Source of the DNA: Planctomycetota bacterium
GTDB taxonomy: Bacteria; Planctomycetota; UBA1135; UBA2386
DNA length: 24,121 nt
Direction of reading: 5' to 3'
NCBI GenBank assembly: GCA_947501605.1
Contig: CANMWZ010000049.1
Location: forward strand, 1-24,121
In this document: in pieces, positions 3,509 through 24,121 of the stretch
Numbering within the stretch: position 1 is the first letter of the stretch
Layout of the letters: the number at the start of each line of letters is the position of its first letter
Position numbers and translations under genes: made by a program
Notes under the pieces: model-generated
Told to the model about the DNA's origin: nothing
Database searches by the model: none
Seen by the model: only the letters and a program-made list of their open reading frames with translations

Positions 3509-3535
3509 CCGCGATTCTCGATCCTGGAGCCCCCC

Positions 3536-4417: not shown

Positions 4418-4437
4418 GAGGACGGGCGCCCGGCGCG

Positions 4438-4800
4438 ATGCCGCCGCTGCGCTTTGGCCAACGCCTCGGCCTCCGCCCCGACCGCTTCGAAGACTACTGC
4501 CGACACCACGCCCGCATTTGGCCTGAGATCGCCGCCGCCATCCACGGCGCCGGCATCCGCAACTACTCGATCTATTGCCTCCGCGTCGAGGCTTCGAGCG
4601 AACAGGGCGGCTACGAGCTGTTCGGCTACTACGAGTACGTCGGGCCGAAGGAAGAGTATGGCGCGCGCATGGAACGCTTGGGTGCGGCCCCGCGCATGCG
4701 CGAGTGGTGGGACCTGATGGAAGCCATGCAGATCCCCCATCCGCGACGCCAGACCGGCACGTGGTGGGCGGCGATGGAAGAAGTATTCCACCAGGACTGA
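4438..4800 (+). CDS. L-rhamnose/L-fucose mutarotase (RhaM/YiiL family)
   Basis: YCRHHARIWPEI, GIRNYSIY, LFGYYEY, REWWDLM and MEEVFH motifs. Start is ATG 4438 or a coupled GTG at 4414. Confidence 0.88.
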   Translation: MPPLRFGQRLGLRPDRFEDYCRHHARIWPEIAAAIHGAGIRNYSIYCLRVEASSEQGGYELFGYYEYVGPKEEYGARMERLGAAPRMREWWDLMEAMQIPHPRRQTGTWWAAMEEVFHQD

Positions 4801-4860
4801 CAGCGGACCGGTTGCAGGCGATGCTGTGCCCTCTTCTGGACTGCATCGTTCTCCTTCGCC

Positions 4861-5958: not shown

Positions 5959-5962
5959 CGCG

Positions 5963-6802
5963 ATGCCGACGCCGCGACTCGACAGCCACCAGCACTTCTG
6001 GCGCTACACGGCCGCCGACTACGGGTGGATCGACGACACGATGGCCGTGCTGCGGCGGGACTTCCTGCCCGTCGACCTCAAGCCCGTGCTCGATCAGACG
6101 GGTCAGGATGGCTGCATCGCTGTTCAGGCTCGGCAATCCGAGGCCGAGACCCGGTGGCTGCTCCGGCTCGCCGACGAAGCCCCGTGGATTCGCGCCGTGG
6201 TCGGCTGGGTAGACCTGGCCTTGGCGGAGGTCGCGGACCGGCTCGATGCGCTGCGCCACGAGCGTCTTCGCGGCATTCGCCACGTGCTGCAAGCCGAACC
6301 TGACGACTACAGCAGGAGTTCGGCCTTCCGCCGCGGTCTGGCTGAGCTGGCCCGACGAGGTCTGGTCTACGACCTGTTGGTCTACGCGCCGCAGTTGCCC
6401 GTGGCGATCGAGTTGGTCCGCGCCTTCCCCGACCAGGCCTTCGTCCTCGACCACATGGGCAAGCCCCGGGTTCGGGCCGGGGAGCACAGCACCTGGGCCC
6501 GCGACCTTCTCGTGCTGGCATCCTTGCCCAACGTCGCATGCAAGCTCTCTGGACTGGTGACGGAGGCCGAGTGGCGGACCTGGACGAATGCGTCGCTGCG
6601 ACCCTACTTCGAGACGGTGCTCGAGGCCTTTGGGCCGAAGCGGCTGATGTTCGGCTCCGATTGGCCGGTCTGCCTGAGCGCTGCGACCTACGCGCGCTGG
6701 CACCAGGTGGCGGCGGCCTGGACGGGGCCGTTGTCGGCGTCGGAACGGGCCGCGATCGAGGGCGGCACGGCAGCGACTTGGTATCGGCTACCTCAGGCCT
6801 GA
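5963..6802 (+). CDS. Amidohydrolase_2 family, L-fuconolactonase-like sugar lactonase
   Basis: DSHQHFW, CIAVQA, VVGWVDL, GIRH, VLDHMGKP, CKLSGL and MFGSDWPV motifs. Confidence 0.88.
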   Translation: MPTPRLDSHQHFWRYTAADYGWIDDTMAVLRRDFLPVDLKPVLDQTGQDGCIAVQARQSEAETRWLLRLADEAPWIRAVVGWVDLALAEVADRLDALRHERLRGIRHVLQAEPDDYSRSSAFRRGLAELARRGLVYDLLVYAPQLPVAIELVRAFPDQAFVLDHMGKPRVRAGEHSTWARDLLVLASLPNVACKLSGLVTEAEWRTWTNASLRPYFETVLEAFGPKRLMFGSDWPVCLSAATYARWHQVAAAWTGPLSASERAAIEGGTAATWYRLPQA

Positions 6803-7391: not shown

Positions 7392-10300
7392 GTGAAGATC
7401 CAACGGCGGTTCACCAAGCAAGGCAGCTCGCCCTACGCGGGCATCGCGTTCCACAAGCGCACCAGCGAGATCCGGAATCCCAACGGGTCCGTCGTGTTCG
7501 AAGCGCGCGACATCGATGTCCCCGCGGCCTGGAGCCAGGTCGCCGTTGACATCCTGGCGCAGAAGTACTTCCGCAAGGCAGCGGTGCCGCAGCGCGACGA
7601 GAACGGCAAGCCGATGCTGGACACCGCCGGCAACCCGGTGCTCGGCGGCGAGACCTCCGCCCGTCAGGTCTTCGACCGTCTCGCCAGTTGCTGGCGCCAC
7701 TGGGGCGAAGAGCACGGCTACTTCGACACCAAGGACGACGCCCAGGCCTTCGAGGCCGAGCTTTGCCACATGCTTGCGGCGCAACATGCCGCGCCGAACT
7801 CGCCACAGTGGTTCAACACTGGCCTCCACCACGCCTACGGCATCAGCGGCCCGGCCCAGGGTCACTGGTATGTCGACCCGCACACCGGAAAGCTGCACCG
7901 CAGCAAGTCGGCCTACGAACGGCCCCAGCCGCACGCATGCTTCATCCAGGCCGTCAGCGACGACTTGGTCAATGACGGCGGCATCATGGACCTCTGGACG
8001 CGCGAGGCGCGCCTGTTCAAGTACGGGTCGGGCACCGGCAGCAACTTCTCGCAACTGCGGGGCGAAAACGAGCCGCTCTCGGGCGGCGGCAAGAGCTCCG
8101 GCCTGATGAGCTTCCTGAAGATCGGTGACCGCGCGGCTGGCGCCATCAAGTCGGGCGGCACCACGCGTCGCGCCGCCAAGATGGTCTGCCTCGATCTCGA
8201 CCACCCAGATATCGAAGCCTTCGTGTCGTGGAAGGTCATCGAGGAGCAGAAGGTCGCGGCGCTGGTCACCGGCAGCCGAGTGATCGGGCGCATCCTGAAG
8301 CAAGTCGTCAACGCCTGCCACGTCAAGGCTGAGGACGGCACGGCTCAGATCATCACCGCGGCGGCCGACAACGGGCAGTTGCGAGCCGTGCTGCTCGAAG
8401 CCCGGAACCTGCAGATTCCGGACAGCTACCTGCAGCGCGCGTTGCAACTCGCCGGCCAGGGTTTCCACGCCGTCGAACAGCCCGAGTACGACACCAACTG
8501 GGATGGCGAGGCCTACGCGACGGTCTCTGGGCAGAACTCGAACAACTCGATCCGCATCCCCAACGCGTTCTTCCGCGCGGTCGACGAAAGCAGCAAGTGG
8601 CAGCTGATCCGCCGCACCGACGGCAAGGTCGACAGCGAGCTCGATGCCGTCGAGTTGTGGGACAAGATTGCCTACGCGGCATGGGCCTGTGCGGACCCGG
8701 GCGTTCAGTACGATACGACGATCAACGAGTGGCACACTTGCCCCGCCGATGGTCGCATCAATGCGAGCAATCCGTGTTCGGAGTACATGTTCCTCGACGA
8801 CACGGCGTGCAACCTGGCGTCGATCAACCTCGTCAAGTTCCTCAACGAGGACGGCTCCATCGACATCGATGGGTTCCGCCACGCAACCCGCCTCTGGACG
8901 GTAGTCCTCGAGATCAGCGTGTTGATGGCCAGCTTCCCCAGCCAGGAGATTGCCAAGAGGAGTTACGAGTTCCGCACGCTCGGACTGGGGTTTGCCAACC
9001 TCGGCACCATTCTGATGCGTTCGGGCATCCCGTACGCATCGCCCAAGGCCTACGCGATCGCCGGTGCGATCAGTGCGGTGATGTGCGGCGAGTCCTATGC
9101 CACGTCGGCGGAGATGGCCAAGCAACTCGGCGCGTTTCCGGGCTACGAGCGCAACAAGGATTCGATGCTGCGAGTCATCCGCAACCATCGTCGGGCCGCG
9201 TATGCGGCGAGCGCCTCGGAGTACGAAGCCCTGTCGATTGCGCCGGTTGGCATCGACGCGCAGTTGTGCCCGAAGGACCTGCTCGAAGCGTCGCGCTCCG
9301 CGTGGGACAAGGCGCTCGTGCTGGGCGAGAAGCATGGCTACCGCAACGCGCAGGTAACCGTGATCGCGCCGACGGGCACCATCGGCTTGCTGATGGACTG
9401 CGACACGACCGGTGTGGAGCCGGACTTCGCCCTGGTGAAGTTCAAGAAACTTGCCGGCGGCGGCTACTTCAAGATCGTCAACCAGAGCCTGCCCCCAGCG
9501 CTCAAGAAGCTCGGCTACTCACCAGCACAGATCGACGAGATCGTGGCCTACGTCGTCGGGCGCAAGACTCTCGCCGGCTCGCCGGCGGTCAACCACGAGA
9601 CGCTGGCGCAGAAGGGCTTTGACAGCGCGTCGCTGCGCAAGATCGAGGACTCGCTCAAGTCGGCCTTCGATCTCAACTACGCATTCAGCAAGAACGTGCT
9701 CGGCGAGGAGTTCCTGCGCCGGCACTTCGGGCTCACCGATGCGCAGATGAGCGACTGGACCTTCGATCTGCTGCGCCACATGGGCTTTGGCAAGGCGGAG
9801 ATTCAGGCCGCGACGGACTACGTGTGCGGCATGATGACCGTCGAAGGCGCTCCTCATCTGAAGGACGCGCACCTGCCCATCTTCGATTGCGCCAACCGTT
9901 GCGGGCGCATCGGCAAGCGCTTCATTCCGTTCGCGGCGCACATTCACATGATGGCTGCGGTCCAGCCCTTCATCAGCGGCGCGATCAGCAAGACCATCAA
10001 CATGCCGAGTGACGCCTCGATCGCCGAGGTCAAGGAGGCGTATCGCCTCGGCTGGCGTTCGATGCTCAAGGCCGTTGCGCTCTATCGCGACGGCAGCAAG
10101 CTGAGTCAGCCGCTCAACACCAGTTTGGTCGATGACTCGGCGGTGTCGATGCCTGCAGAGACGCAAGCCGTGGCGCAGCGCATCACCGAGCGCGTGGTGC
10201 ACCGCTACCTCGCCAAGCGCCGAAAGCTGCCGCAGCGCCGAGCCGGCTACACGCAGAAGGCGATCGTCGGTGGGCACAAGATCTATCTGCGCACGGGTGA

Positions 10301-11000
10301 GTACGAGGACGGCACGCTTGGCGAAGTCTTCCTCGACATGCACAAAGAAGGCGCCGCCTTCCGCAGCCTGATGAACTGCTTCGCGATCGCGGTGTCACTC
10401 GGCCTGCAGCACGGCGTGCCGCTCGACGAGTTCTCGGACGCGTTCGTGTTCACGCGCTTCGAGCCCAACGGCGTGGTCCAGGGCCACGATCAGATCAAGA
10501 TGGTCACCAGTGTGATCGACTACGTGTTCCGCGAGTTGGCGATCAGCTACCTCGGGCGCACCGATCTATGCCAGGTGCAGAACGAAGATCTGCGCCACAC
10601 GACGATGGGCGCCAAGAGCCCGGAGTACACGGACGAAGAGGTGATTTCCGAGGAGGTCTACGAGGTGGACGCAATTCGCCCAGACCCTCGGACGGATCGC
10701 CTTCATCCGCAGAGCCGCGGCATCGAGCGCAACAACCCTGACGAGGTGATCGCGCCCCAGGCTCACCAGAACCAGCAGGCCCCGAGCCGAGTGGCAACCA
10801 GCGAAACGGCCCACCGCGGCACTGCGCAGGTGGCTTCGGCGGTAGCGGCGGAGAGCCAGAAGCTGCGCCGCAAGATCGCGGAAGCTCGGCTGAAGGGCTA
10901 CGAGGGTGACCCGTGCGGCAGCTGCGGCGCCTTCACGCTGGTTCGCAACGGCACGTGCCTCAAGTGCGTGTCGTGCGGCGGCACGAGCGGCTGCAGCTGA
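7392..11000 (+). CDS. nrdJ: Class II (adenosylcobalamin-dependent) ribonucleotide reductase with TSCPD domain and C-terminal Zn-ribbon
   Basis: [34 protein letters not shown] (thiyl Cys), [29 protein letters not shown]-terminal CGSC...[11 protein letters not shown]; 1202 aa. Confidence 0.97.
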
Positions 11001-11083: not shown

Positions 11084-12156
11084 CAGCGCACGCGTTCGAG
11101 CTTGCTGACGCGACCGTGGACGTTCCAGTCCATGACGTAGAGGTTGCCCTTTGCATCCGCACACACGGAGTGCGGCGCGAAGAAGACATCCTTCTGCCAC
11201 AAGTCCGAGGCGATCTGGTTGGTGGCGCGCTTGTCCGCAGGGGCTGCATCCCCCAACACCAGTACGGGCTTGTCCTCGCGATCGAGAATCGTCACCCGAC
11301 CGGCGAGGTCCGCTACCGCCAGCATCTCGTCCGCCAACGGCCACACGTTGCAAGGTCGCCACAGCCCGTCCTTGCTCTCGCGCACGAAGGCGCCGTCGAG
11401 CGTGAACCACTGCAGCCGATGGTTCTCGCGGTCGCAAACGAGCAGTAGCTCCGTACCGCTACGCGAATCGACGAAGAGGCCGTGCGGTGTCTGCATCCTT
11501 CCTGGCTCGGTGCCAGGGCCGCCGAAGGACATCCTGTGCACGCGTTCCTTGTCGTAGACATGCACCCAGGACTTGCCGTAGCCGTCGGCGACGAAGATGC
11601 GCCCGTCCGAGGAGGTCACGATTGCTGTCGGATGGAACTCCTCCGCCTTTTGGTAGATCCCCGTGCTCTCGGGCCAGCCGAGGGTCCAGATCACCGCGCC
11701 GTCGATCGTCGTCTTCAGCGTCTCGTGCCGCGACGTATGCGCGAGGTAGAGCACCTCCTTCTCTTCCTCAAGGCGCAGCGTCATGCCATGCAGTCCACCG
11801 CGATACTCCTTGCCCCAGCCACCCACGACGGTGCCTTCCGGCGAGAAGATCAGCACAGCCTCCTCGGTATCGGTGTTGGCCAAGAGCCGGCCCTTGCTGT
11901 CGATCACTAGGCAGCCGTGCGTACTGCCAAGCTCCTTGCCGTTGTCGCGACGTCCAAAGCCGTCGACCCAACGGAACTGTGGTGGCTTCGGCAGGCCCTT
12001 CGCTTCTTCTTTGGTTGCCGAGCTGGTCTCGGCTGGCAACGGCGTTTGCACGGGCTCCTGGCCCTGCACTGCAGCGACCAAGGTCGTGAGCGCCAGAACG
12101 AGCCGCCGTGGAGCAGCGAAGAACAGATCGAGCGAATCGTCAGTGCGTGTGGCCAT
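11083..12156 (-). CDS. Secreted NHL-repeat beta-propeller, peptidyl-alpha-hydroxyglycine amidating lyase (PAL)-like
   Basis: Signal-like RRLVLALTTLVAAVQGQ; LHGM, VADGYG, TPHGL, VCDRENHRLQWF, APHSV and GNLYVMDW motifs. Likely start is ATG 12156 (or 12168) rather than 12321. Confidence 0.8.
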   Translation of the reverse strand: MATRTDDSLDLFFAAPRRLVLALTTLVAAVQGQEPVQTPLPAETSSATKEEAKGLPKPPQFRWVDGFGRRDNGKELGSTHGCLVIDSKGRLLANTDTEEAVLIFSPEGTVVGGWGKEYRGGLHGMTLRLEEEKEVLYLAHTSRHETLKTTIDGAVIWTLGWPESTGIYQKAEEFHPTAIVTSSDGRIFVADGYGKSWVHVYDKERVHRMSFGGPGTEPGRMQTPHGLFVDSRSGTELLLVCDRENHRLQWFTLDGAFVRESKDGLWRPCNVWPLADEMLAVADLAGRVTILDREDKPVLVLGDAAPADKRATNQIASDLWQKDVFFAPHSVCADAKGNLYVMDWNVHGRVSKLERVR

Positions 12157-13081
12157 GGTCCTTGTCATCGAGATGGGTAAGCGAATGCAATGCGGACGCT
12201 CCAAAGATCGAGTCCGAAGCGTCTTGGGCGAGCGACTGCAGCACGACACGAGCCTCGGCATCGCGACCGCATTCATGCAGCGCTTTCCCCAGATAGAGAC
12301 GAGCCCGCAGGGCCTCGTCACCGAGGGCGGGATCGCGTGCTGGACCGGCCAGTAGCGTTGCTGCCTCTACGTGCTTCCGTTCCTTGAAGAGAACGTAGCC
12401 GAGCGTTACGTCAGCTGCCGCGGACGGCAGGGCCGCTCGCAGCCACTGCCGCGCGCGTTCGCAACGCCCGTCCAACGCAAACAACCGCGCCAGGCGATGA
12501 TTGGCATCGACTTCGCCCGCCTGCGCCGCCCGTACCAGCAGGTCCTCGGTGCCTACCCGGCAGCCGAGATCGAGAAGCGCGCAGCCGAGGGCGAGGTTGG
12601 CTTTGCCATCGACCGGTGCACGTGCCAAGGCCGCCCGCAACTGCAGGACCTGTTGCCGCCGGCTGGCGCACAGGCGCAGAAACGCCGCGAGTTCGGGTGG
12701 ATCCTGTGGTCCTGGACGAGCGGCATAGACGCGCCCTTCGCTGTCGAGGACGCAGACTCCCATCCCCTCGCCACCGCCGATCCACTGCGAGTAGAGCCGT
12801 TGCTGCGCGAACCCGTCCATGCTCAACGAGGCGAACCCGCCGGCATCGAGAGCAACCGTCACCTCGGGCGCCAGGAGCACGACACGCTGCATCCGATCAC
12901 TCTGTTCACGACCTGCCAGGCGGAAGAAGATCACCGCGTCGCGGCCAACCGCTCGCGCCTCTCGCAAGGTGCCAGCAGAGTCGTCCGACCAGCGTCCCGG
13001 GGTTCCGGCACAGCCAGCAAGACTCAGCCCAAGCACCAGCGTCCAGTTGGCCGGATGCAGTCGGAGAGAGGGACCTTGCAC
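12140..13081 (-). CDS. Lipoprotein with a redox-inactive thioredoxin-like domain, TPR repeats and a His-rich tail
   Basis: Lipobox LAGC; thioredoxin-like N-domain lacking CxxC; TPR-like helices (ANLALG, TLGYVLF, ARLYLGKAL); C-terminus HLDDKDHGHTH; 17-bp overlap with the NHL gene. Confidence 0.7.
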   Translation of the reverse strand: MQGPSLRLHPANWTLVLGLSLAGCAGTPGRWSDDSAGTLREARAVGRDAVIFFRLAGREQSDRMQRVVLLAPEVTVALDAGGFASLSMDGFAQQRLYSQWIGGGEGMGVCVLDSEGRVYAARPGPQDPPELAAFLRLCASRRQQVLQLRAALARAPVDGKANLALGCALLDLGCRVGTEDLLVRAAQAGEVDANHRLARLFALDGRCERARQWLRAALPSAAADVTLGYVLFKERKHVEAATLLAGPARDPALGDEALRARLYLGKALHECGRDAEARVVLQSLAQDASDSIFGASALHSLTHLDDKDHGHTH

Positions 13082-13372: not shown

Positions 13373-15271
13373 ATGCGAATCGCGCTCTTCTTGTGTTCTC
13401 TGGCGATCCTCGCTTTGGCTGCCTGTCGCTCGACCGAGGATCCCTCGATGCAGAAACACAACCCCGATGTGCCGCAGCGCGACCCCCACAGCTTTTCGCA
13501 GCCTTCGGCAGTCTGTGTGCAGCACGTGTCGCTCGACCTAGATCTCGACTTCGACCAACTGCAGGCACGAGGGACGTGCACGCTCTCCCTGCGCCGCACG
13601 GATCCATCGGCGCCGCTGTGGCTCGATACCGAAGGGCTCCTGATCGACAGTGTGATGGCGGTGCCGATGGACACACCCGTGCCCTTCGAACTCGGCCCGC
13701 GCGATCCCACTCTGGGGCAACCGCTGCGCATCGAGCTGCCTTCCGCCTGCGACCGCGTGCGCATCGTCTACCGGACGGCGGCCTCCGGTGCGGCGGCGAT
13801 GCAGTGGCTCTCCTCGGCTCAGACAAGCGGCGACCAGCCGTTCCTGTTCACCCAAGGCCAGGCCATCTTGACGCGTAGCTGGATTCCGCTGCAGGACTCG
13901 CCCGCGGTGCGCGTCACCTGGGACGCGCGCATTCGGGCGCCGAAGGGACTGCGGCCGTTGATGAGCGCAGAAGAACGCGGCGGCGACGCGGCAACGGGCT
14001 ACACCTTCGCGATGCGGCACCCGGTGCCGAGCTACCTGATCGCCCTCGCGTGCGGCAAGCTCGAAGAGCGCATCATCAGCGCTCGCTGTGCGGTCTGGGC
14101 CGAACCCGAAGTTGTCGAGGCCGCCAGCAAAGAACTCGAGGACATGGAGCGGATGGTCGCGGCGTGCGAGCAGCTGTTCGGTCCGTATCGCTGGGGTCGC
14201 TACGACGTCCTGGTTCTGCCGGCGAGCTTCCCGTTTGGCGGCATGGAGAACCCGTGCCTGACGTTTGCGACGCCGACGATTCTCGCCGGCGACAAGTCGT
14301 TGGTCGCATTGATCGCCCACGAACTCGCCCACAGTTGGTCGGGCAACCTCGTCACCAATGCGACCTGGCGCGACTTCTGGCTCAACGAGGGCTTCACCGT
14401 CTACCTCGAGCAGAGGATCATGGAACACGTCTACGGCGTCGAGCGGGCCAAGATGGAGATCGCGCTGTCCATGCGACAACTCGCGCAAGAGCTCCGCACG
14501 CTGCCGCCAGGCGATCAAGTGCTGCACATCGACCTTGCCGGCCGCAACCCGGACGATGGCATGACGTCGATCCCCTACGACAAGGGTGCCGCGTTCCTGC
14601 GCCGACTCGAGCAGGTGTTTGGTCGCCAACGCTTTGATGCCTTCTTGCGCGCCTACTTCGACCGCTACGCCTTCCAGAGCATCACGACCTCCCAGTTCAG
14701 CGAGTGGTTGCAGCACGACCTCTTGGACCAAGAGCCAAAACTCGCGGCGACGGTGGATGTGCCGCTGTGGATCGAGACGCCGGGTTTGCCGGCGGATGCA
14801 CCGTTCGCTGAGTCCACGGCCTTTCTGGCGGTCGACGTCGTGCGCGAGGCGGTGAGTAGCCAGAAATCCGCGGCGGCGCTTCTGGCGCTGGGCGACCTCG
14901 ACTGGAACACGCAGCAGTGGCTCCGCTTCCTCGCCGACCTGCGCGTCGATGCTGCCGTGATGGCGGCGATCGACACTCGCCATCGCCTGACGACTTCGGG
15001 CAATAGCGAGGTCCTGTGCCTCTGGCTAGAACTGGCCATTGCGGCGGACTACGCGCCGGCGATGCCGCGGCTGGAGCAGTTCCTCGTCACGGTCGGGCGG
15101 CGGAAGTTCCTGAAGCCGCTTTATGAGGCGCTGCTGCGTACTGCGAACGGCAAAGAGCGCGCCCTCGCGATGTACCAGAAGGCGCGACCGCACTACCACG
15201 CGGTCGCCGTGCGCACCCTCGACGAGCTGCTCGGCTACGCCGCCCCGACGGGATCCGGCACCCAACGTTGA
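13373..15271 (+). CDS. M1-family zinc aminopeptidase (leukotriene A4 hydrolase-like), lipoprotein
   Basis: Lipobox LAAC; DPHSFS, GGMEN, HELAH...NEG, IPYDKG and VGRRKFLKPLY motifs. Confidence 0.95.
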   Translation: MRIALFLCSLAILALAACRSTEDPSMQKHNPDVPQRDPHSFSQPSAVCVQHVSLDLDLDFDQLQARGTCTLSLRRTDPSAPLWLDTEGLLIDSVMAVPMDTPVPFELGPRDPTLGQPLRIELPSACDRVRIVYRTAASGAAAMQWLSSAQTSGDQPFLFTQGQAILTRSWIPLQDSPAVRVTWDARIRAPKGLRPLMSAEERGGDAATGYTFAMRHPVPSYLIALACGKLEERIISARCAVWAEPEVVEAASKELEDMERMVAACEQLFGPYRWGRYDVLVLPASFPFGGMENPCLTFATPTILAGDKSLVALIAHELAHSWSGNLVTNATWRDFWLNEGFTVYLEQRIMEHVYGVERAKMEIALSMRQLAQELRTLPPGDQVLHIDLAGRNPDDGMTSIPYDKGAAFLRRLEQVFGRQRFDAFLRAYFDRYAFQSITTSQFSEWLQHDLLDQEPKLAATVDVPLWIETPGLPADAPFAESTAFLAVDVVREAVSSQKSAAALLALGDLDWNTQQWLRFLADLRVDAAVMAAIDTRHRLTTSGNSEVLCLWLELAIAADYAPAMPRLEQFLVTVGRRKFLKPLYEALLRTANGKERALAMYQKARPHYHAVAVRTLDELLGYAAPTGSGTQR

Positions 15272-15579: not shown

Positions 15580-17097
15580 ATGCAGTACGGATTCGTCATC
15601 GACCAGCGCCGGTGCATCGGTTGCCATGCCTGCACGGTTGCGTGCAAGTCGGAGAACGATGTTCCGCTCGGCGACTTCCGCACCTGGGTGAAGTACGCGG
15701 AGGTCGGCACCTTTCCGCAAGTGAAGCGCCACTTCGCCGTACTGCGCTGCAACCAGTGCACCAGCGCGCCGTGCGTGACCATTTGCCCCGTCGACGCCCT
15801 GCACAAACGTGAGGATGGCATCGTCGACTTGTCCAAGGACGTATGCATCGGCTGCAAGGCTTGCATGCAGGCGTGCCCCTACGATGCGCTCTCGCTCAAT
15901 GAGGAGACCGGCGGTGCGGAGAAGTGCCACTTTTGCGCGCACCGTGTAGAGCAAGGGCTCAAGCCCGCCTGCGAAATCGTCTGTCCGGTAGAGGCCATCA
16001 TCTCGGGGGACTTCCACGACCCAAACAGCAGGATCAGCCAACTACGTCGCGACGTGCCTGGTGCCGCGGCCCGTCGCACCGAACAGGGTACCGGTCCCAA
16101 CGTTTGGTACCTCGGTGCCCACGAGACGTTGCTCGAGCCCGGGACGGCCAAGGAAGAGAACACCTACCTGTGGAGCGATCGACGATCGCCGCCGCCGCCG
16201 ATGCCGGCGAAAGACGCCCAGCGCTTCCAGCGGCAAGATGCCCGCGTTGTCCTCGACGTCGATCACAAGCTGCATTGGGGTGCCAAGGTATCGGCCTATC
16301 TCGTCACCAAGGGCATTGGTGCTGGCGCCTGCATGTGGGCCCCCTTCTTGCTGGCCATGAATGGCTCGGCGCTGGCGAAGGACTACGCCCCCGAGCTCAT
16401 CGGCATCGTTTTCACGACCTTGACCACGATCTTGCTGGTCGCGGATCTCAAGCGACCCAAGCTGTTCTTGACGCTGCTGCTGCGACCCAACTGGAAGAGC
16501 TGGTTGGTCAAGGGCGCGATCGTATTGATCGCCTTCAGCACCATCACCGCAGCCATCGTTGGGGCGCGCTTGCTCGGTCTTGATGCGATCGCCAATGGCT
16601 TGCGCTGGACCAACGTGCTTCCGGCTTCGATGGCCGCTGCCTATACCGCCTTCCTATTCGCGCAGTGCGAAGGACGCGATCTGTGGCAGCGCACCAATGT
16701 GCTCCTGCCACACCTTTTGGTTCAGGCCCTTTGGGTAGGCGGCGCGGCGTTGCTGCCATTCATTCCCGACCGCGGCCTCGCGGTCGCTGTCGCCGTGCTC
16801 GCGATCGTTCACCATGCACTCGGGTTGTTCGAGCGCTTCAGCACGCACCACACCAGCAATGCACAGCAAGCCGCTGCGATGCTGGCCGAGGTGAAGGCCT
16901 GGCCTGGTTCGCGCCACTCGGCCCTCCACCTCGGCCTTGCAACGGGAACGGCATCGGCGCTGCTTTCCGCGTTCTTGGTAGTAAGCGGCGCCGCCCATCC
17001 GGCGGCGCTCGCCATGTGTGCGGTCCTGGCCTGGGCCGGCCTGTTCCTCTACGAGCAGGCCTACGTGCGCGCTGGTCAGTTGCCGCCGCTGAGCTGA
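15580..17097 (+). CDS. Fused NrfC/PsrB-type four-cluster ferredoxin + NrfD/PsrC-type membrane anchor
   Basis: CIGCHACTVAC, CNQCTSAPCVTICP, CIGCKACMQACP and CHFC...ACEIVCP cluster motifs; then WGAKVSAYL, LVADLKRP, SWLVKG, AAAYTAFLF and several TM helices. Confidence 0.92.
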   Translation: MQYGFVIDQRRCIGCHACTVACKSENDVPLGDFRTWVKYAEVGTFPQVKRHFAVLRCNQCTSAPCVTICPVDALHKREDGIVDLSKDVCIGCKACMQACPYDALSLNEETGGAEKCHFCAHRVEQGLKPACEIVCPVEAIISGDFHDPNSRISQLRRDVPGAAARRTEQGTGPNVWYLGAHETLLEPGTAKEENTYLWSDRRSPPPPMPAKDAQRFQRQDARVVLDVDHKLHWGAKVSAYLVTKGIGAGACMWAPFLLAMNGSALAKDYAPELIGIVFTTLTTILLVADLKRPKLFLTLLLRPNWKSWLVKGAIVLIAFSTITAAIVGARLLGLDAIANGLRWTNVLPASMAAAYTAFLFAQCEGRDLWQRTNVLLPHLLVQALWVGGAALLPFIPDRGLAVAVAVLAIVHHALGLFERFSTHHTSNAQQAAAMLAEVKAWPGSRHSALHLGLATGTASALLSAFLVVSGAAHPAALAMCAVLAWAGLFLYEQAYVRAGQLPPLS

Positions 17098-17163
17098 GTA
17101 GCGAGCTGAGTGCCGTCGAGTCTTCGCGCTGGCCGTCTGGCAGCCTCGGGCCTCCGAGTGCTG

Positions 17164-19134
17164 TCAGCTCGCATCCACCTGCACCTGAAGGCTGGCGCAG
17201 AACTCGGCGAACTTCAACGCGCCGTCGATTGGTAGCCCCTTCTCACGAGCCTGCACCAGGGGCGTGTGCTTGCGCGCCTCCTGGATGGCCGCAAAGAGAG
17301 ACGCCGGGGTGATCGAGTCAGGATGCAGGCACGTGACGAGTCCGAGTTCGGCCAACCGGCTCGCGCGAATCCACTGCTCCTGGCGATACAGAACGCGAGG
17401 AATCAAGATGGCGCGTCGCGCCAGCGACAGGATGTCCGTGCACGTGTTGTAGCCCGCAGTGGCAATGACCAACTCCGCCGACCGCATCATGGCTGCCGTC
17501 GAAGGCAGGAAGCTGCGGATGGTGACCGGCAGATCTTCGGCCTCTTCCCGCATTCGTTGCTCGAGTTCTGGTTCGACGAACGGGCCGGTCAGAATCTCGG
17601 AGTGGAAGTCGATGGCGTGCAGATTGGTCCGCAGCATCTGTAGGAACGGCAGGATCACTGTGTCACCGCCGCCATCGCCACCGCCGATGGTGACCATGAT
17701 GGTCGGCTTCTGCCCGTGCACCGAGCCATCCTTCAGGCCGTCGTCTGGCGTGCAGACGTAGTTCAGGAATCGGGCGCGACTGGCCAAGGACGGCGGCAGT
17801 TCGTAGCGGGTCACCGGGTCGTAGAACTCGCGGTTGCCATAGACGACGACATGGTCGTAGTTCTGCTCGAGCTGCTCGTAGATCCCGCTGCGCTGCCAGT
17901 GCTCGATCACCGACTTGGGGTCATCGAGGATGTCGCGCATACCCAACACTCGTTGGCACCCGCGGTTCTCCTGCAGCCACTTCAAGGCCGGCAACAGTTC
18001 TCCGCGGCTGCCTGTCGGCGAATGATCCACCAGCAGCATGTTCGGCCGATAGTCACGGACCGTGTGCAGGATCAGATTGCTGCGCAGGCTGCGAATCGCG
18101 TCGCCACTGATCTGCAACGAGCGAGCTTCGTACTGCTCGGCCTCGACCTTGACGAGGGCTGGAAGCTTGACGTAGTCGGAGCCCTGGGGCATCCCATAGC
18201 GATGCACCATCGGTGACCCCGTGACCAACAGCACCGAGGCCTCTGGATGGCGGGCGCACACGGCCTTGATCAGGGCCATGCATCGGCGCAGGTGGCCAAG
18301 ACCGAAGGTATCGTGCGAATAAACCAGTAAGCGCGTGCCCTTGCCGAAGGCCTTGGTCGCGCGGACCGGTTCGGCCGGGACCAGTGCTGCAGGCTGGCGC
18401 TGTCGCAACGTCAGGAGTACGCCGGTGCCATTCGTATCGGCGTCGTCGACCTGTTCCATCGACACATCGACGAGCCGGAGCCGCCCATCGAGATCTCGGA
18501 TCTCGATCGTTGCCGGATCCGTCAGCGCGCCGGTCCGAACCCGCCCGAGGCATGGCATGAGAGGCGCGGCCGTAGCGCTGCCACCGAGAACGTCGGCGAG
18601 CAGCCGGCCATAGGTTCGATAGACCGGCCAACCGATGAGCTCGGCAGCGCTCTGGTTGGCAAACGTCACTCGATCGTCGCCGTCGACCACGAACACTGCA
18701 CCCCCGATCCGTTCGAGCATCGATTGCAGGGATCGATTGCGGCGCTGCTCGGTGACAAGGCGGGCATGGCTCGCGAATGCCGTCGAGATGGCGGCGCGAA
18801 CTTGGGCCTGCGTGAATGGCTTGACCAGATAGCCGGCGGCTCCGACCTGTTCCGTGCGCTCGACGGTGGCCTGGTCGGCATAGGCGGAAATGAAGATCAC
18901 GGCGCAGGCATGTTCCTGCACGAGCTTGCTCGCCGTTTCGACGCCGTCCGTACCGGCGGCGAGATGAATGTCCATGAGGACCAACTCGGGCCGTTCGTTT
19001 GCAGCGAGCTCGAGGGCCTCGTCGCGATCGGCAGCAGTACCGACCACGATGTGACCAAGCTCCTCCACGATCCTGGTCAAGTGGAGTTGAACGACCATCT
19101 CGTCCTCGACGATCAAAATGCGACGAGGGTTCAT
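17164..19134 (-). CDS. Response regulator REC-PAS fused to a GT-B glycosyltransferase (COG4671 / GT28-like)
   Basis: REC with E10-D11, D55, S83, K105-P106; PAS-like VFVVDGDDRVTFANQSAAELIG; from ~aa 268 YSHDTFGLGHLRR, LLVDHSP, LGMRDILDDP, VTIGGGDGG, AGYNT, LIPR and EQWIRA. Confidence 0.9.
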   Translation of the reverse strand: MNPRRILIVEDEMVVQLHLTRIVEELGHIVVGTAADRDEALELAANERPELVLMDIHLAAGTDGVETASKLVQEHACAVIFISAYADQATVERTEQVGAAGYLVKPFTQAQVRAAISTAFASHARLVTEQRRNRSLQSMLERIGGAVFVVDGDDRVTFANQSAAELIGWPVYRTYGRLLADVLGGSATAAPLMPCLGRVRTGALTDPATIEIRDLDGRLRLVDVSMEQVDDADTNGTGVLLTLRQRQPAALVPAEPVRATKAFGKGTRLLVYSHDTFGLGHLRRCMALIKAVCARHPEASVLLVTGSPMVHRYGMPQGSDYVKLPALVKVEAEQYEARSLQISGDAIRSLRSNLILHTVRDYRPNMLLVDHSPTGSRGELLPALKWLQENRGCQRVLGMRDILDDPKSVIEHWQRSGIYEQLEQNYDHVVVYGNREFYDPVTRYELPPSLASRARFLNYVCTPDDGLKDGSVHGQKPTIMVTIGGGDGGGDTVILPFLQMLRTNLHAIDFHSEILTGPFVEPELEQRMREEAEDLPVTIRSFLPSTAAMMRSAELVIATAGYNTCTDILSLARRAILIPRVLYRQEQWIRASRLAELGLVTCLHPDSITPASLFAAIQEARKHTPLVQAREKGLPIDGALKFAEFCASLQVQVDAS

Positions 19135-21425
19135 ACGGTCACCGCCGTAGCTGGAGCCCGACCGGCAAAGACAATTCGCACCGTCACGCCCCCATTGTTC
19201 TCCATCGTCACCTTGCCGTTGAGCTGGCGCGCAAGTTTGGCGACCAGACTCGTGCCTAGTGTTCGTCGGCTAGGTCCGCTGGCCGGCTTCAGCCCGTGGC
19301 CATTGTCGGTGACCTCGAGCACGCGCATGCCATCGGTTTGCTCCTTGAGACGCAGGGTCACCGTGCCCCGTTCGTCCTCCGCGAATGCGTACTTGAATGC
19401 GTTGGTCAGCAGTTCGTTCACGATCAACCCGCACGCCAGCGACTGGTCCAGATCGAGATGCAACTGATCGAGATCCAACACCAGTTCGATCAGGCTGGTC
19501 TTGCCGTACGACTGAACGAGATGTTGGGCCAGCACCTGCAGGTAACTGCGGGTGTCGATATGCGCCAGCTCCGTCGACTGGTAGAGCTGCTCATGGATCA
19601 TTGCGATGGTGCGGATGCGGTTCTGGCTCTCCTCGAGACGACGAAGCACCTCGGGATCACCGGCGGTAGATTGCATTGCCAACAAGCTCGAAATCACCTG
19701 CATGTTGTTCTTCACTCGGTGATGCACTTCGCGGAGTAGCAGTTCCTTCTCGCCGAGGGATCCCCGCAACTGCAGTTCGATGGCCTTGAGCTGACTGAGA
19801 TCCTGTGCCACCAGCACATACCCTTGGAGGACACCATCCGAGGTGCGCAAACCCGCAAACGAGAGCGACACCGGGATGTCCATGGCGTCGGCGCGCAGCA
19901 TCGCGCGTTCCAGACTGCCTCCCGAACGAGCCGAGGCCGCAGCAAGTTGGTCGACCGTTTCGCCATCGACCATGCGGCAGAGCATGCGCAGCGGCTGTCC
20001 TACTTGCAGGTGCCGTCCCCGACCAAGAAGGCGCTCGGCGGCGGCGTTGGCTTGCGACACCGTGCCGCTCTGGTCGCAGAGAATGACCGCGGCGGCCATC
20101 GAATCGAACATGGTCTGCAAACTCGTGACCGACACAGTCGTCGTCGCGAGTTGACCGGCCATGCTGTTGAACGCTCGCGCCAGCACGCCGAGCTCATCCT
20201 TGCCTCCGACTTCGACTCGTGTATCCAGCCGACCCTGCCCAAGTGCTACCGCCGCGTTGTGGAGCCGCTGGATCGGGACGTGGATCGAGCGCCAGACCAT
20301 GAGCCCGAGGACGCCGGCGACCAACACGGCGACCAGACTGGTGCCGAGTGCGACCCGCGTGGTCGTGCCCGTTCGGTCGAGCACGCCATGCAACTCGTCG
20401 CCTAGGTCTTCTTCCGCTCGGCTTAGATAGGCGTAGACATAGGGGATGAGTTCGAGGTCGAGGAAGGGCTCGACCTCCTCGCTGAGGAAGTCGAGGGCGA
20501 GATGATGACTGCCCGCGACCAAGTGCTCGTGCATCGATTTGACGAGATGCTGCAACTGCGGCACTCGCCCCAGCATGCCTTGGAGATGACCTCGGATGTC
20601 GTCCGAAGGCACCGCCGAGCTGCTTGCGGTCGGGCTACTGGCGTCGGTCAGGATCTGCTCGAACTTCGCCGCCTCCCGATCCATCTCGAGTGCAGCGGAC
20701 GTACCCTCGGTCTGCTCACTGAAGGCTTGGCTGCTGACAGCCTTGTGGGCTTCGGCGCGGAACTTCTGCAAAGCACGCAGCATCCTCGTGCCGTGTTCAA
20801 TTCGGCCGAAGGCGGTCTCCGGTCCGTTCTCCTGCACCGGTTGCAAGACGATCTGCAGGGTGTCGAGAAAGACCGTCTCGGGCGGTGTTCCGTCGAGGTC
20901 GCCGGGGACCACCATTCCCTTGACCTTGTCACTGGGCTTGACGTCTCGCAGTTCGATCTTGGTCGCCGTCCACTGATGCGTCGCTTCGTCGATCTTGCAA
21001 GAGACCTCGGCGCGATGGCCAGTAGCCAAACGGTTGAAGTCAAAAGGCGTTTCGGCGCCGGAGCGGTCAGGGTCTCCTTCCGTACGCGCGGTGACGAGCA
21101 GGCGAACGCCGTACATCGTCATGGTGCGCGCGGCAGGATCGATCGCCTGAATGCGACCGCGCAGTTTGGGCCGGAGTGTCTCCGGCATCTCGCTGACTTG
21201 GGTGGCGATGAAGGCACCAGCCGAGTTCCAGTAGCCCTCGAACTCGAGCCCCGATCGCGTCAGGTCGATGCCGCTGACATCGACACCATCACTCGGCTGC
21301 AGCCGCGTAACGCCTGCCCGCACCTGTTCGTTCACACCGTACGAGACGATGCCCACGAACAGGACCAAGCTCACCAGCACCGAGAAGGCGAGGGTGAGGC
21401 GGAATCGTAGACTCGATGCAATCAC
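19131..21425 (-). CDS. Membrane sensor histidine kinase: TM - DUF5666-like/helical sensor - TM - HAMP - PAS - HisKA_2 - HATPase
   Basis: H-box LLREVHHRVKNNMQVISSLL; N-box NELLTNAFKYAF; DNGHG and TLGTSLV; HAMP DELGVLARAFNSM; two TM segments. Likely GTG start at 21425 (track start 21515). ATGA overlap with the response regulator. Confidence 0.92.
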   Translation of the reverse strand: MIASSLRFRLTLAFSVLVSLVLFVGIVSYGVNEQVRAGVTRLQPSDGVDVSGIDLTRSGLEFEGYWNSAGAFIATQVSEMPETLRPKLRGRIQAIDPAARTMTMYGVRLLVTARTEGDPDRSGAETPFDFNRLATGHRAEVSCKIDEATHQWTATKIELRDVKPSDKVKGMVVPGDLDGTPPETVFLDTLQIVLQPVQENGPETAFGRIEHGTRMLRALQKFRAEAHKAVSSQAFSEQTEGTSAALEMDREAAKFEQILTDASSPTASSSAVPSDDIRGHLQGMLGRVPQLQHLVKSMHEHLVAGSHHLALDFLSEEVEPFLDLELIPYVYAYLSRAEEDLGDELHGVLDRTGTTTRVALGTSLVAVLVAGVLGLMVWRSIHVPIQRLHNAAVALGQGRLDTRVEVGGKDELGVLARAFNSMAGQLATTTVSVTSLQTMFDSMAAAVILCDQSGTVSQANAAAERLLGRGRHLQVGQPLRMLCRMVDGETVDQLAAASARSGGSLERAMLRADAMDIPVSLSFAGLRTSDGVLQGYVLVAQDLSQLKAIELQLRGSLGEKELLLREVHHRVKNNMQVISSLLAMQSTAGDPEVLRRLEESQNRIRTIAMIHEQLYQSTELAHIDTRSYLQVLAQHLVQSYGKTSLIELVLDLDQLHLDLDQSLACGLIVNELLTNAFKYAFAEDERGTVTLRLKEQTDGMRVLEVTDNGHGLKPASGPSRRTLGTSLVAKLARQLNGKVTMENNGGVTVRIVFAGRAPATAVTV

Positions 21426-21564
21426 GAAGTAGGGCGGGGCAGGGGAGGCAGAAGCGGGACTGGTGCTGAAGCAAACACCGGAATCAGCCCTCTGTTGTCG
21501 GGGCAATCCGACCATTCGTCAACCACTGCTTCTCTGCCCGTCGGGCCTCGGGGATCCGCGTACG

Positions 21565-21582: not shown

Positions 21583-21658
21583 GGTCTCAGCTGGCGGACA
21601 AGCTCGCATGCTGCGCCGTGGCGCCCACATCGGCCTTCCCGGTAAGGTCTACAGATTC

Positions 21659-24121
21659 ATGGATCCGACCACGCTGCGAACGACTCCACTCGAGAACTTC
21701 CCGCCGCCGTCCGAGTGGGACGATTGGACCGAGTTCGACGCGCGTGCATGGCCAAAACGCGAGGAGCGTCACTACTCCCTGGTGCCCACCATCTGCTTCA
21801 ACTGCGAAGCCGCGTGTGGTCTCGTTGCCTATGTCGATCAGAAGGACGGGCGCATCCAGAAGCTCGAGGGCAACCCGTATCACCCTGGGTCGCGCGGCCG
21901 AAACTGCGCCAAGGGCCCCGCGACCATCAACCAGATCCACGACCCTGATCGCATCCTCTACCCGATGAAGCGGAAGGGGCCGCGCGGTAGTGGCGAGTTC
22001 GAGCGAACGACCTGGGACGAAGTGCTCGATACGCTTGCGCTGCGCATCCGCAACGCAATCGTCGAGCAGCGCCTCACCGAAGTGATCTACCACGTGGGAC
22101 GGCCAGGGCATGATGGCTACGTCGAACGGGTTCTGCAGGCCTGGGGCGTCGACGGGCACAACAGCCACACCAACGTCTGCAGCGCTGCAGCTCGTTTGGG
22201 CTACGTGCTGTGGAGTGGTCACGACCGCCCGTCACCGGACTACGAGAATGCCACGTTCACCTTGCTGATCTCCGCGCACTTGGAGACCGGCCACTACTTC
22301 AACCCGCACGCGCAGAGGATTATCGACGGCAAGATGAAGGGCGGAAAGTTGGCGGTTTGCGATATCCGCCTATCGAACACCGCGAGCATGGCCGATTTTT
22401 GGCTGGCGCCCCGGCCCGGCACGGAAGCCCTCATGCTGCTCGGCTTCGTCCACGTGCTCCTGCGCGACGGCTTGGCCGATTGGAAGTTCGTCGAGGACTG
22501 GGTCGATTGGCGCGGCTACCAGCGCGCCCGCGACCGCGAAGTGAGTTTCGACGCCTTCCAACGCGATCTCGCTGCCGACTACGCCTTCGCAACGCCGGCG
22601 CATGTAGCCATGGTCTGCGGTCTCGAGCCAACCACCATCGAAGAGGTTGGTCGCGAAATCGGTAAGGCCGGCGCCAAGTTCGCGAGCCATGTCTGGCGCA
22701 ATAGCGCCGCCGGAAACGAGGGTGGCTGGGCCGTCGCACGCAACCTGCAGTTCGTGTCCGTGCTGGTCGGCGCAGTTGGTTCGCTGGGTGGTACCAACCC
22801 CGCAGGGGCCAACAAATTCGTGCCTTCGCCCTTCAGCAAGCCGAGCCCGCAGCAAGTCTGGAGTGAACTGCTCTATCCTCGCGAATGGCCGCTCGCCCAC
22901 CACGAGCTCAGCTTCCTGTTGCCGCACCTGTTGAAGAGCGGTCGTGGCCGCGTCGACACCTACTTCACTCGGGTCTACAACCCGGTCTGGACCAATCCGG
23001 ACGGCATCGTCTGGATCGAAGCGCTCATGGATGAGGCGCTGTTCGGCTGCCACGTCGTGCTGTCGCCGACTTGGAACGAGACGAGTCGCTATGCCGACTA
23101 CGTGCTGCCGATGGGCCACGCGACGGAGCGCCACGACCTGATGAGCCAGGAGACCCACGCGGCCACCTGGATCGGCTTCCGGCAACCCGTGCACCGAGTC
23201 CTCGCCGAGCGCAAAGGCCAGACCGTCGAGTGGACATGGCAGGTCAACCCAGGCGAGGTCTGGGAAGAGGACGAGTTCTGGATCGCGCTGTCCTGGAAGA
23301 TCGACCCCGATGGCTCGCTCGGAGTGCGTAAGCACTTTGAGTCGCCGTACCGCCCTGGCGAGCGCGTCACGATCACCGAGTACTACCGCTGGATCTTCGA
23401 GAACTCGGTGCCCGGCTTGCCCGAAGCTGCCGCCAAGGAAGGGCAAACGCCGCTCGAGTACATGCAGCGGCACGGCTGCTTCTTGGTCAAAGACCAGATC
23501 TACCGCACGCATGAAGCCGAGTGGAAGGAGGGCGGCCAGGTCGATGCCGAGGAAGGGCTCGTTCGGCGCGATGGCAAGCCGGTCGGCGTCATCGTCGACG
23601 GCACGGCCCGGGTCGGCTTTCCGACGCAGAGCAAGCGGCTGGAGATCCACTCGCAAACGATGGCGGACTGGGGTTGGCCTCAGTACTCGGCACCGTGCTA
23701 CATCGAGAGTCACGTCGACGAGAAGCACCTCGACACCAACAAGGGCGAGATGGTCCTGGTCGGCACCTTCCGTCTACCGACGCTGATCCATACGCGATCG
23801 GCCAACAGCAAGTGGCTGAGTGAGTTGTCCAACACCAACCCCGTCTGGATCCATCCCAGCGACGCACAGCGCGTCGGAGTAGTCACCGGCGACCTCCTGA
23901 GAGTGACAACGGTCACGGGCTACTACGTCAATGCTGCGTGGGTTACCGAGGGCGTGCGTCCAGGCGTCGTGGCCTGCAGTCACCACCTTGGTCGGTGGAA
24001 GATCCAAGGGGATGCGCGCGCGCAGAACCGCTGGCAGATCCACGACGTCGACTTCCGCCAGGTGGAGAAGGGTCGCTACCTGGTGCGCCGCGTCAAAGAC
24101 GTCGGGGCCTTCGAGAGCAGC
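21659..24121 (+). CDS. Molybdopterin (bis-MGD, DMSO reductase family, Psr/Phs-like) oxidoreductase catalytic subunit, truncated by window end
   Basis: Absent from the ORF track because it has no stop in the window. Manual translation gives MDPTTLRTTPLENFPPPSEWDDW...TICFNCEAACG...EGNPYHPGSRGRNCAKG...DPDRILYPMKR...HTNVCS...YADYVLP...VWIHPSDA. The same frame reads cleanly at the window end (VEKGRYLVRRVKDVGAFESS). Confidence 0.93.
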   Translation, partial: MDPTTLRTTPLENFPPPSEWDDWTEFDARAWPKREERHYSLVPTICFNCEAACGLVAYVDQKDGRIQKLEGNPYHPGSRGRNCAKGPATINQIHDPDRILYPMKRKGPRGSGEFERTTWDEVLDTLALRIRNAIVEQRLTEVIYHVGRPGHDGYVERVLQAWGVDGHNSHTNVCSAAARLGYVLWSGHDRPSPDYENATFTLLISAHLETGHYFNPHAQRIIDGKMKGGKLAVCDIRLSNTASMADFWLAPRPGTEALMLLGFVHVLLRDGLADWKFVEDWVDWRGYQRARDREVSFDAFQRDLAADYAFATPAHVAMVCGLEPTTIEEVGREIGKAGAKFASHVWRNSAAGNEGGWAVARNLQFVSVLVGAVGSLGGTNPAGANKFVPSPFSKPSPQQVWSELLYPREWPLAHHELSFLLPHLLKSGRGRVDTYFTRVYNPVWTNPDGIVWIEALMDEALFGCHVVLSPTWNETSRYADYVLPMGHATERHDLMSQETHAATWIGFRQPVHRVLAERKGQTVEWTWQVNPGEVWEEDEFWIALSWKIDPDGSLGVRKHFESPYRPGERVTITEYYRWIFENSVPGLPEAAAKEGQTPLEYMQRHGCFLVKDQIYRTHEAEWKEGGQVDAEEGLVRRDGKPVGVIVDGTARVGFPTQSKRLEIHSQTMADWGWPQYSAPCYIESHVDEKHLDTNKGEMVLVGTFRLPTLIHTRSANSKWLSELSNTNPVWIHPSDAQRVGVVTGDLLRVTTVTGYYVNAAWVTEGVRPGVVACSHHLGRWKIQGDARAQNRWQIHDVDFRQVEKGRYLVRRVKDVGAFESS

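Follow-up and report, generated by a model that had tools for sequence, protein, structure and literature searches.

In the 24,121-nucleotide stretch of planctomycete DNA analysed here (the window; contig CANMWZ010000049.1 of assembly GCA_947501605.1), two adjacent genes on the reverse strand encode a sensor histidine kinase and a protein that joins a response-regulator receiver, a PAS domain and a glycosyltransferase (GT) of the GT-B fold in one uninterrupted open reading frame (ORF) of 656 residues. The kinase ORF overlaps the start of the fusion as ATGA at positions 19131-19134. The receiver has the canonical set of a response regulator, with the acidic pair E10/D11, the phospho-acceptor D55, S83 and K105, and the GT carries the motifs HDTFGLGH (residues 274-281), GGGDGG (484-489), AGYNT (560-564) and EQ (586-587), together with a Pfam match to Glyco_tran_28_C at residues 514-625 (E 4e-11). 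Pfam found neither a DNA-binding domain nor a GT2 match (PF13641, GT-A) in the fusion. An earlier note, written from the sequence alone, had described the continuous frame, its motifs, the coupling to a HisKA_2 kinase and the missing DNA-binding domain, and on these points our analysis agrees with it.

The same note had named a misassembly near 18330-18420 among the findings that would refute this picture. Contigs from two independent runs, neither flagged as a possible source of the window DNA, cross the junctions (X6, 16923-19813; X8, 17212-18674), and an RNA-library contig of run X11 spans the PAS-GT junction (17771-18570), each with 0 differences to the window, which rules out a misassembly. 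RNA-library contigs cover parts of both the fusion and the kinase genes, which cannot by itself show transcription, and no sigma-70 promoter was found between 15200 and 22000.

In an AlphaFold model of the fusion, built on a 76-row alignment (mean predicted local distance difference test score, pLDDT, 86.7), the last helix of the receiver continues as a single helix, followed by the PAS fold and two Rossmann domains; because the predicted template modelling score (pTM) is only 0.67, the arrangement of the domains is not well fixed. The receiver itself resembles the PhyR/PRK13435 class in its top NCBIfam matches, every one of them below cut-off, and the thresholds of the general stress response were not reached by either protein (NCBIfam PhyK, 140 of 750 bits; PhyR, 111 of 240 bits, for the receiver part only). 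The top Foldseek matches of the GT are the GT1 enzymes OleI/OleD, CalG and YjiC, plus MurG (E 1e-14 to 1e-11; TM-score by target 0.57-0.74; 13-18% identity), with which it shares two Rossmann domains and C-terminal donor motifs, its GYN and EQ motifs aligning with those of YjiC. No specific assignment follows from profiles: the macrolide glycosyltransferase model TIGR01426 scored 33 bits against a cut-off of 260, and the MurG model TIGR01133 gave no match at E 1e-5. The label COG4671, given to this GT in the earlier note, comes from no profile match, and the term occurs in no paper of the literature searched.

The fusion is not a singleton. A protein search with it gave 681 matches among 8,000 scored candidates, and the family figures given here describe the query plus 119 of the best 120 of these 681. 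Receiver and GT occur together in 116 of the 120 aligned rows (100 receiver-PAS-GT and 16 receiver-GT), three others lacking a full receiver and one a full GT. No substitution was seen at any of the key sites: D55 is present in 117 rows, with three gaps, and S/T83 and K105 in 118 each, with two gaps; H274, D275, H281 and D370 are found in all 120; and GGGD, GYN and RxEQ are each kept in 119, with one gap. Conservation is highest in the receiver (mean identity to the query 0.67), followed by the GT (0.59), the helix at residues 121-142 (0.40) and the PAS domain (0.35), and where the latter is absent, in 16 rows, a linker of 45-83 residues connects receiver and GT. Source names are mostly Planctomycetota, including that of the nearest named homologue (87% identity), with single Myxococcales, Deltaproteobacteria and Spirochaetales labels. 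The architecture can already be seen in databases, where JGI assigns the automatic name 'predicted glycosyltransferase/CheY-like'.

The kinase is an equally constant feature. Across 31 fusion loci, with genes called by a custom codon model, the upstream gene was in view in 27, and in 26 of these it is the kinase, on the same strand and with a 4-base overlap in 14; related loci and genomes are not independent, and seven of the loci come from close relatives of the window genome. It was also found in all five further fusion genomes, adjacent by coordinates in four, so that the neighbourhood that the earlier note proposed to check is indeed retained. The protein has the layout transmembrane helix-DUF5666-transmembrane helix-HAMP-PAS-HisKA_2-HATPase, with predicted membrane helices at residues 40-58 and 388-406, and its likely GTG start at 21425, the one chosen in the earlier note, agrees better with the N-termini of aligned relatives than does the ATG at 21515 that opens the longest ORF. 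The H-box HHRVKNN is invariant across 23 aligned kinases; we take H599 to be the phosphorylated histidine, as in other HWE/HisKA_2 kinases. A search with the extracytoplasmic region of the kinase returned 33 proteins, 31 of them HisKA_2 kinases of the same form and two DUF5666-AlgE porins. Of the domain pairs compared over 16 loci, the receiver and the dimerization and histidine phosphotransfer domain had the highest distance correlation (rho 0.86 versus 0.70-0.80), which shared descent could explain. Coordinates of both genes and their parts are collected in Table 1.

Table 1. Features of the fusion and kinase genes in the window.
Feature	Position	Strand	Basis
Receiver-PAS-GT-B fusion gene P0001, 656 residues	17164-19134	-	Single ORF, Pfam, AlphaFold model
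Receiver domain, residues 6-116	18787-19119	-	Pfam Response_reg, E 3.5e-22
Codon of phospho-acceptor D55	18970-18972	-	
Long helix, residues 109-142, receiver helix 5 into PAS	18709-18810	-	Model secondary structure
PAS domain, residues 136-245	18400-18729	-	Pfam PAS/PAS_4, E 3e-8
Fusion-specific motif F263-G-x-G-T267, directly N-terminal to GT	18334-18348	-	Alignment comparison
GT-B glycosyltransferase, residues 268-650	17185-18333	-	Conserved motifs, structure matches
Codon of GT residue H281	18292-18294	-	
Codon of GT residue D370	18025-18027	-	
Codon of GT residue D567	17434-17436	-	
Sensor histidine kinase gene P0002	19131-21425	-	ORF list, Pfam, aligned relatives
P0002 extracytoplasmic tandem DUF5666 beta module, residues 88-226	20838-21254	-	Pfam, profile, model
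P0002 extracytoplasmic four-helix bundle, residues 231-378	20382-20825	-	Structure model
P0002 bundle end, second membrane helix 388-406, HAMP 407-456, cytoplasmic PAS 466-577	19785-20398	-	Pfam, alignment
P0002 HisKA_2, residues 596-670 (invariant LLxExHHRVKNN), and HATPase, residues 696-783	19167-19730	-	Pfam, alignment

Stand-alone relatives of the GT domain give the fusion a pathway context. In 113 of 120 loci the gene next after the stand-alone GT encodes a GT4 enzyme, and outside Alphaproteobacteria the typical cluster (for example, loci L122, L033 and L101) comprises the GT, two GT4s, an MsbA-like ABC transporter, two or three APH-family kinases, a DUF5666-AlgE porin, CarboxypepD and beta-helix proteins, frequently accompanied by UDP-glucose dehydrogenase, epimerase, sulfatase or sulfotransferase genes. 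The same core gene order is found on an Escherichia coli plasmid (L261:10013-20191), where a full GT-GT4-GT4-ABC-APH-APH-porin-dehydrogenase cluster adjoins an IS630 element, and the GT is matched by 10 Escherichia plasmid records. In alphaproteobacterial versions (L058, L050 and L260) the export genes are replaced by an oligopeptide-type importer, a histidine phosphatase, a second GT28_C gene, and an MscS channel or a cNMP-partnered ABC protein. In two loci, L024 and L111, it is the fusion that heads the full cluster.

In the window genome such a cluster lies on contig C9 (28554-39243, read from 39243 downwards, plus the next genes) and holds GT4, GT4, ABC transporter, APH, APH, AlgE porin, beta-helix and CarboxypepD genes, that is, every core gene except the GT. 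Three GT queries of this genome matched only the window, so the fusion is the sole copy. The GT is missing from the 1.4-1.5 kb before the GT4 gene in all five genomes of the genus; four of them have the fusion elsewhere, and the fifth, which is 65% complete, shows no GT. The earlier note had seen no GT-cluster partners, which is correct for the window and incorrect for the genome, and its picture of a partnerless switch with an open-ended acceptor, an orphan GT, has to be given up, given that the usual partners are present in a cluster that lacks exactly this enzyme. The GT4 is present in 22 of 24 distinct fusion genomes (in one of them partial, at a contig edge), and in 20 of the 24 we could find no second GT of the family; in one genome (G042) a GT28_C gene of more distant kinship lies nearby. 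Among 401 genomes of the phylum, with at most four candidates scored in each, the GT was found in 47 and the GT4 in 43; every one of the 43 also has the GT, and in five of them no GT other than the fusion was found.

Phylogenies indicate where the fused enzyme came from. In a FastTree analysis of 93 of 191 GT domains, the 32 fused GTs form one group (support 0.892) nested within stand-alone GTs of Zixibacteria, Ignavibacteria and unnamed contigs (0.997), and an IQ-TREE analysis of 50 hand-picked rows supports the 24 fused rows at 99/95, and these together with 8 of 10 sister rows at 100/99, with native planctomycete stand-alone GTs placed apart; the trees were midpoint-rooted only. A HisKA kinase and a sigma-54 regulator precede the sister clusters in the seven loci with enough upstream DNA.

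The sensor of the fusion kinase points to the same source. In its structural model the DUF5666 beta module, which the earlier note overlooked and which is common to the export proteins of the pathway, is inserted between the first helix and the remainder of a four-helix bundle. The bundle resembles chemoreceptor ligand-binding domains (PcaY_PP, 6s18; Z 15.1, root mean square deviation 2.3 over 139 aligned residues), tied with designed bundles; matches to the bundle filled the structure search with the sensor model. A profile of the kinase module matched the free DUF5666 proteins and porin N-termini of the sister clusters at E 1e-45 to 1e-39, as against merely 1e-9 to 1e-4 for planctomycete porins. 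The module bears the conserved basic motifs RPKLRG, RxEVSC and KxSDKVKG, and the sister-cluster sequences retain RPKLRG and KxxxKvKG. An Atlas structure search ranked an AlgE/DUF5666 cluster first (TM-score 0.78 over 146 residues), an Atlas feature search gave no usable match, and in the window genome the kinase-type profile matched nothing but the kinase itself. Sulfatases adjoining the fusion in L024 (20004-21647) and L111 (1778-3607) end in DUF5666-like repeats and are a fourth type of cluster protein with the module. As regards a possible common origin of its bundle and that of the kinase in the sister clusters, the profile match (99.7%) begins no earlier than the last helices and is carried by HAMP and ATPase, and 4HB_MCP_1 matches of the sister kinases fall below cut-off.

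The tree position of the GT and the DUF5666 profile matches thus trace both the enzyme and the sensor module to one type of cluster. We propose that the cassette of kinase and fusion would have arisen once, in a cluster of the Zixibacteria/Ignavibacteria type, that it may then have reached planctomycetes separately and coexisted with the native GT, as it does in genome G018, and that in many of them it would have replaced it.

On this evidence, we consider it likely, with a probability of roughly 60%, that the kinase phosphorylates D55, that phosphorylation switches on the GT, and that the GT is the member missing from the C9 export cluster. An outside signal would then likely switch a step in the synthesis of an exported glycan directly. 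Transfer from H599 of the kinase to D55 is expected from the rules of two-component systems and the coupling of the genes. The enzyme would be an inverting UDP-sugar transferase of the GT1/GT28 type using H281 with D370, two invariant residues that we assume to be equivalent to the catalytic His-Asp dyad of GT1 enzymes; solved structures could be aligned by profile along the C-terminal half only. Its donor is probably a UDP-uronic acid or another UDP-hexose, as relatives adjoin or are fused with UDP-glucose dehydrogenase and epimerase genes: the former lies directly upstream of sister GTs, and fusions of the GT family to an N-terminal NAD-dependent epimerase exist. The latter were seen in three unrelated loci (L034:9158-11320, L041:8978-11233 and L129:6996-9266). 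As acceptor, an intermediate of the C9 export pathway is most likely, since that cluster lacks exactly this GT, and the product would be an early, probably lipid-linked intermediate, extended by the two GT4s, phosphorylated by the two APH-family kinases, flipped by the MsbA-like ABC transporter and exported by the AlgE-like porin as a short anionic glycan or glycolipid.

How the receiver might gate the enzyme is suggested by comparing fused and stand-alone GTs. Eight positions in or flanking the GT are conserved in fusions only (F263, T267, A337, D361, C393, H428, S545 and C646); F263, for instance, occurs in 92% of 115 fusions, whereas among stand-alone GTs it is absent from the 12 sisters and present in 2% of the 51 others. 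The motif F263-G-x-G-T267 is retained in PAS-less fusions, and D361, C393, H428 and C646 likewise persist after loss of the PAS domain. These positions, the dispensable PAS domain and the variable length of the linker in PAS-less forms favour a tethered receiver that would dock on the enzyme or dimerise it over a rigid lever. The favoured direction is activation, a CheB-like release of inhibition upon phosphorylation.

Control at the level of the enzyme would probably not stand alone. A sigma-54-like site is found some 200 bases ahead of the C9 GT4 gene (6 of 300 shuffles were as good), and a sigma-54 activator (TPR-GAF-sigma-54, L184:17718-19967, on C9) is encoded 2.4 kb upstream. In the sister regions such a site was seen in 3 of 8, a weak signal (13 regions tested against base shuffles). 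The idea that transcriptional control has been replaced by enzyme control is therefore unsupported as stated; the site and the activator near C9 suggest that enzyme-level control was added to transcriptional control. The cluster is preceded by a 593-residue ORF (L184:15495-17276) with no Pfam or NCBIfam match.

Several observations weigh against the proposal that the fusion is the phospho-activated GT of the C9 pathway. The GT4 of C9 is 58-61% identical to those of native planctomycete clusters and 43-49% to those beside fusions; being of native type, it would oblige the fusion to work with foreign partners. Four of the 24 fusion genomes (G018, G041, G043 and G048) keep a stand-alone GT beside the GT4, so the fusion is not always needed, and in two (G053 and G210) no GT4 was found. 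A second GT could be missed within the limit of four candidates in the phylum searches, and also in G001, G003 and G004, for which 29 of 42-45 candidates were scored. In one locus, L112 (383-4205), MatE takes the place of the kinase upstream of the fusion; the fusion there is among the longest branches of the fused GTs. Neither Pfam nor the kinase-type profile found DUF5666 in the C9 porin. At the enzyme itself, the nearest solved structures are, at the low identities given above, small-molecule GT1 enzymes, and fusions are relaxed at three positions, G458, G490 and E567, that 90% or more of 63 stand-alone GTs keep: position 567, Glu in 90% of the stand-alones, is Asp in 66, Gln in 30 and Glu in 18 of 115 fusions, and Asp in that of the window. 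In the alignment, position 567 falls on the Glu of the motifs HGGMNSTME in YjiC and TVTE in MurG, and donor binding may for this reason be changed in fusions; in MurG this residue, E269, presumably contacts the nucleotide ribose.

Of the other explanations, a constitutive GT is unlikely, though the least so. It would serve the export cluster all the same, and the receiver-PAS part would be a complete regulator fused to the next gene, signalling via other proteins or placing the enzyme at the membrane kinase. Output-less receiver-PAS regulators are known, according to the portion of PMC5847659 consulted, and in a relative (G005) a PAS-HisKA_2 kinase neighbours a receiver-PAS match that lacks this GT; the variable PAS and linker and the low pTM of the model fit as well. 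Yet the fusion has been kept across 24 tree rows since a single origin, in most loci the GT left its cluster along with the signalling genes, and the fusion-specific motif F263/T267 and residues D361, C393, H428 and C646 are retained where the PAS domain is lost.

It is rather improbable that the fused GT acts outside the C9 pathway, in a signal-triggered glycosylation of a small molecule, lipid or protein, for instance one tied to the molybdenum-enzyme genes at its flanks. The natural-product GT1 enzymes at the top of the structural matches, the four genomes that retain both forms and the two without GT4 would fit such a role, but none of the 401 genomes has the GT4 without this GT, five of them meet that need only by the fusion, and in L024 and L111 the fusion still heads the cluster. 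The flanking genes of the cassette, both on the opposite strand, encode a 4Fe-4S/NrfD fusion (15580-17097, +) and a molybdopterin oxidoreductase (21608-24121, +), and the cassette sits between genes of these types in seven loci of close relatives, five with both neighbours in view; the same neighbours are found in L096-L098 and L104-L106. The shared flanks raise the possibility that the cassette landed between the genes for subunits of a single respiratory enzyme. A functional tie to them is disfavoured, as the context is confined to close relatives and the non-kinase neighbours vary beyond them.

A GT domain that is a weak enzyme, or a nucleotide-sugar sensor feeding back on receiver and kinase, is very improbable: the relaxed G458, G490 and E567 near the predicted donor site would suit it, whereas H281, D370, GGG, GYN and RxEQ show no variation, and in 20 of 24 genomes no GT of the family other than the fusion was found. 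An assembly chimera is practically excluded by the contigs of other runs that cross the junctions and by the 100 aligned sequences that share the three-domain form.

The proposed phospho-activated GT has relatives in layout among known regulators. In CheB, WspR/PleD and RsbU-type proteins, the enzyme shares its chain with an N-terminal receiver whose phosphorylation controls it. The fusion likewise places an enzyme with intact catalytic residues behind a receiver without any DNA-binding domain, and the long helix after its receiver recalls the coiled-coil type; their outputs, however, are signalling or chemotaxis enzymes, and that of the fusion is a biosynthetic transferase. The consulted portion of PMC5847659 lists these classes of enzymatic output, and also REC-BcsA regulators of Methanobacteriaceae (Glyco_transf_2_3, GT-A; for example, MTH_548), receiver-GT2 fusions that it lists without a reported experiment. 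These share with the fusion a receiver joined to a glycosyltransferase as predicted output and the lack of a DNA-binding domain; they are archaeal, GT-A/GT2 and cellulose-synthase-like, whereas the fusion is a GT-B of the GT1/GT28 type, mostly from Planctomycetota, and comes with a kinase of its own, a PAS insert and an export cluster that can be traced. The cassette would work like CheB-type enzymatic regulators and is laid out like REC-BcsA, yet belongs to neither class. A phosphorylatable module fused to a glycosyltransferase also occurs in All4160 of Anabaena PCC 7120, a STAS-glycosyltransferase in which phosphorylation directly controls a polysaccharide GT (bioRxiv 10.64898/2026.04.08.717354, seen in part); the control described there is inhibitory and runs through a partner-switching kinase and phosphatase acting on STAS, unlike a His-Asp transfer to a receiver.

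The enzymes closest in structure, OleI/OleD, CalG, YjiC and MurG, have the GT-B fold and C-terminal donor motifs and no regulatory domain, and at such low identity their acceptors cannot be carried over. The stand-alone clusters share GT family, motifs and gene order with the fusion, and differ in that their GT is a separate protein, preceded in sister clusters by the HisKA kinase and sigma-54 regulator. The Synechocystis genes sll1722-sll1726 are possibly homologous to the GT-GT4-GT4 cluster, and sll1722 is, going by a 2004 title, reportedly an inositol-phosphate synthase. The portions consulted of PMC3566033 and PMC6971039, citing Foster et al., give sll1722-sll1726 a role in the production of extracellular polysaccharides and in stress protection, as does PMC3516471, and sll1723 is described as salt-inducible (PMC4759255, in part). 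The literature searched, which excluded most subscription papers and two output-domain reviews, gave no description of a receiver-GT-B protein or a DUF5666 kinase, and nothing on the GT-GT4-GT4-ABC-phosphotransferase-porin cluster under its terms, and PMC4395418 contains no passage that matches; the output-domain reviews and the supplements of PMC5847659 may list receiver-GT-B fusions. To that extent, the prior characterization that the earlier note thought might exist did not come to light.

A bolder extension, which we offer as tentative, is a closed product-feedback loop across the envelope. The DUF5666 module of the kinase would have been taken from the export proteins of the pathway and would bind the exported anionic glycan in the periplasm via its invariant basic motifs; the kinase would then set the phosphorylation of the GT, metering synthesis at the enzyme and without transcription, and the cassette might be a two-gene throttle that spread among planctomycetes and displaced the unregulated transferase of native clusters. 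If true, this would give DUF5666 a first function.

Elsewhere in the window, a protein with C-terminal EF hands (451-1989, +) is followed by a sugar-catabolic run of short-chain dehydrogenase, FAA hydrolase, rhamnose mutarotase, enolase-type dehydratase and amidohydrolase genes (2720-6802, +), a class II ribonucleotide reductase (7392-11000, +), a 313-residue ORF that has no Pfam match and is conserved in relatives (12140-13081, -) and an M1/leukotriene A4 hydrolase-like peptidase (13373-15271, +).

Two-component control of polysaccharide synthesis normally acts via transcription or second messengers. Since the fusion family supplies a soluble enzyme along with its kinase and likely pathway partners, in vitro tests of whether a glycosyltransferase is gated directly by His-Asp transfer become feasible, and a phospho-switchable GT-B would be useful in glyco-engineering. 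The cassette also seems to show a regulated enzyme taking over, from a locus far away, the role of an unregulated one, and the fusion family opens a way into DUF5666 and into a GT-GT4-GT4-ABC-phosphotransferase-porin cluster that is widespread and uncharacterised.

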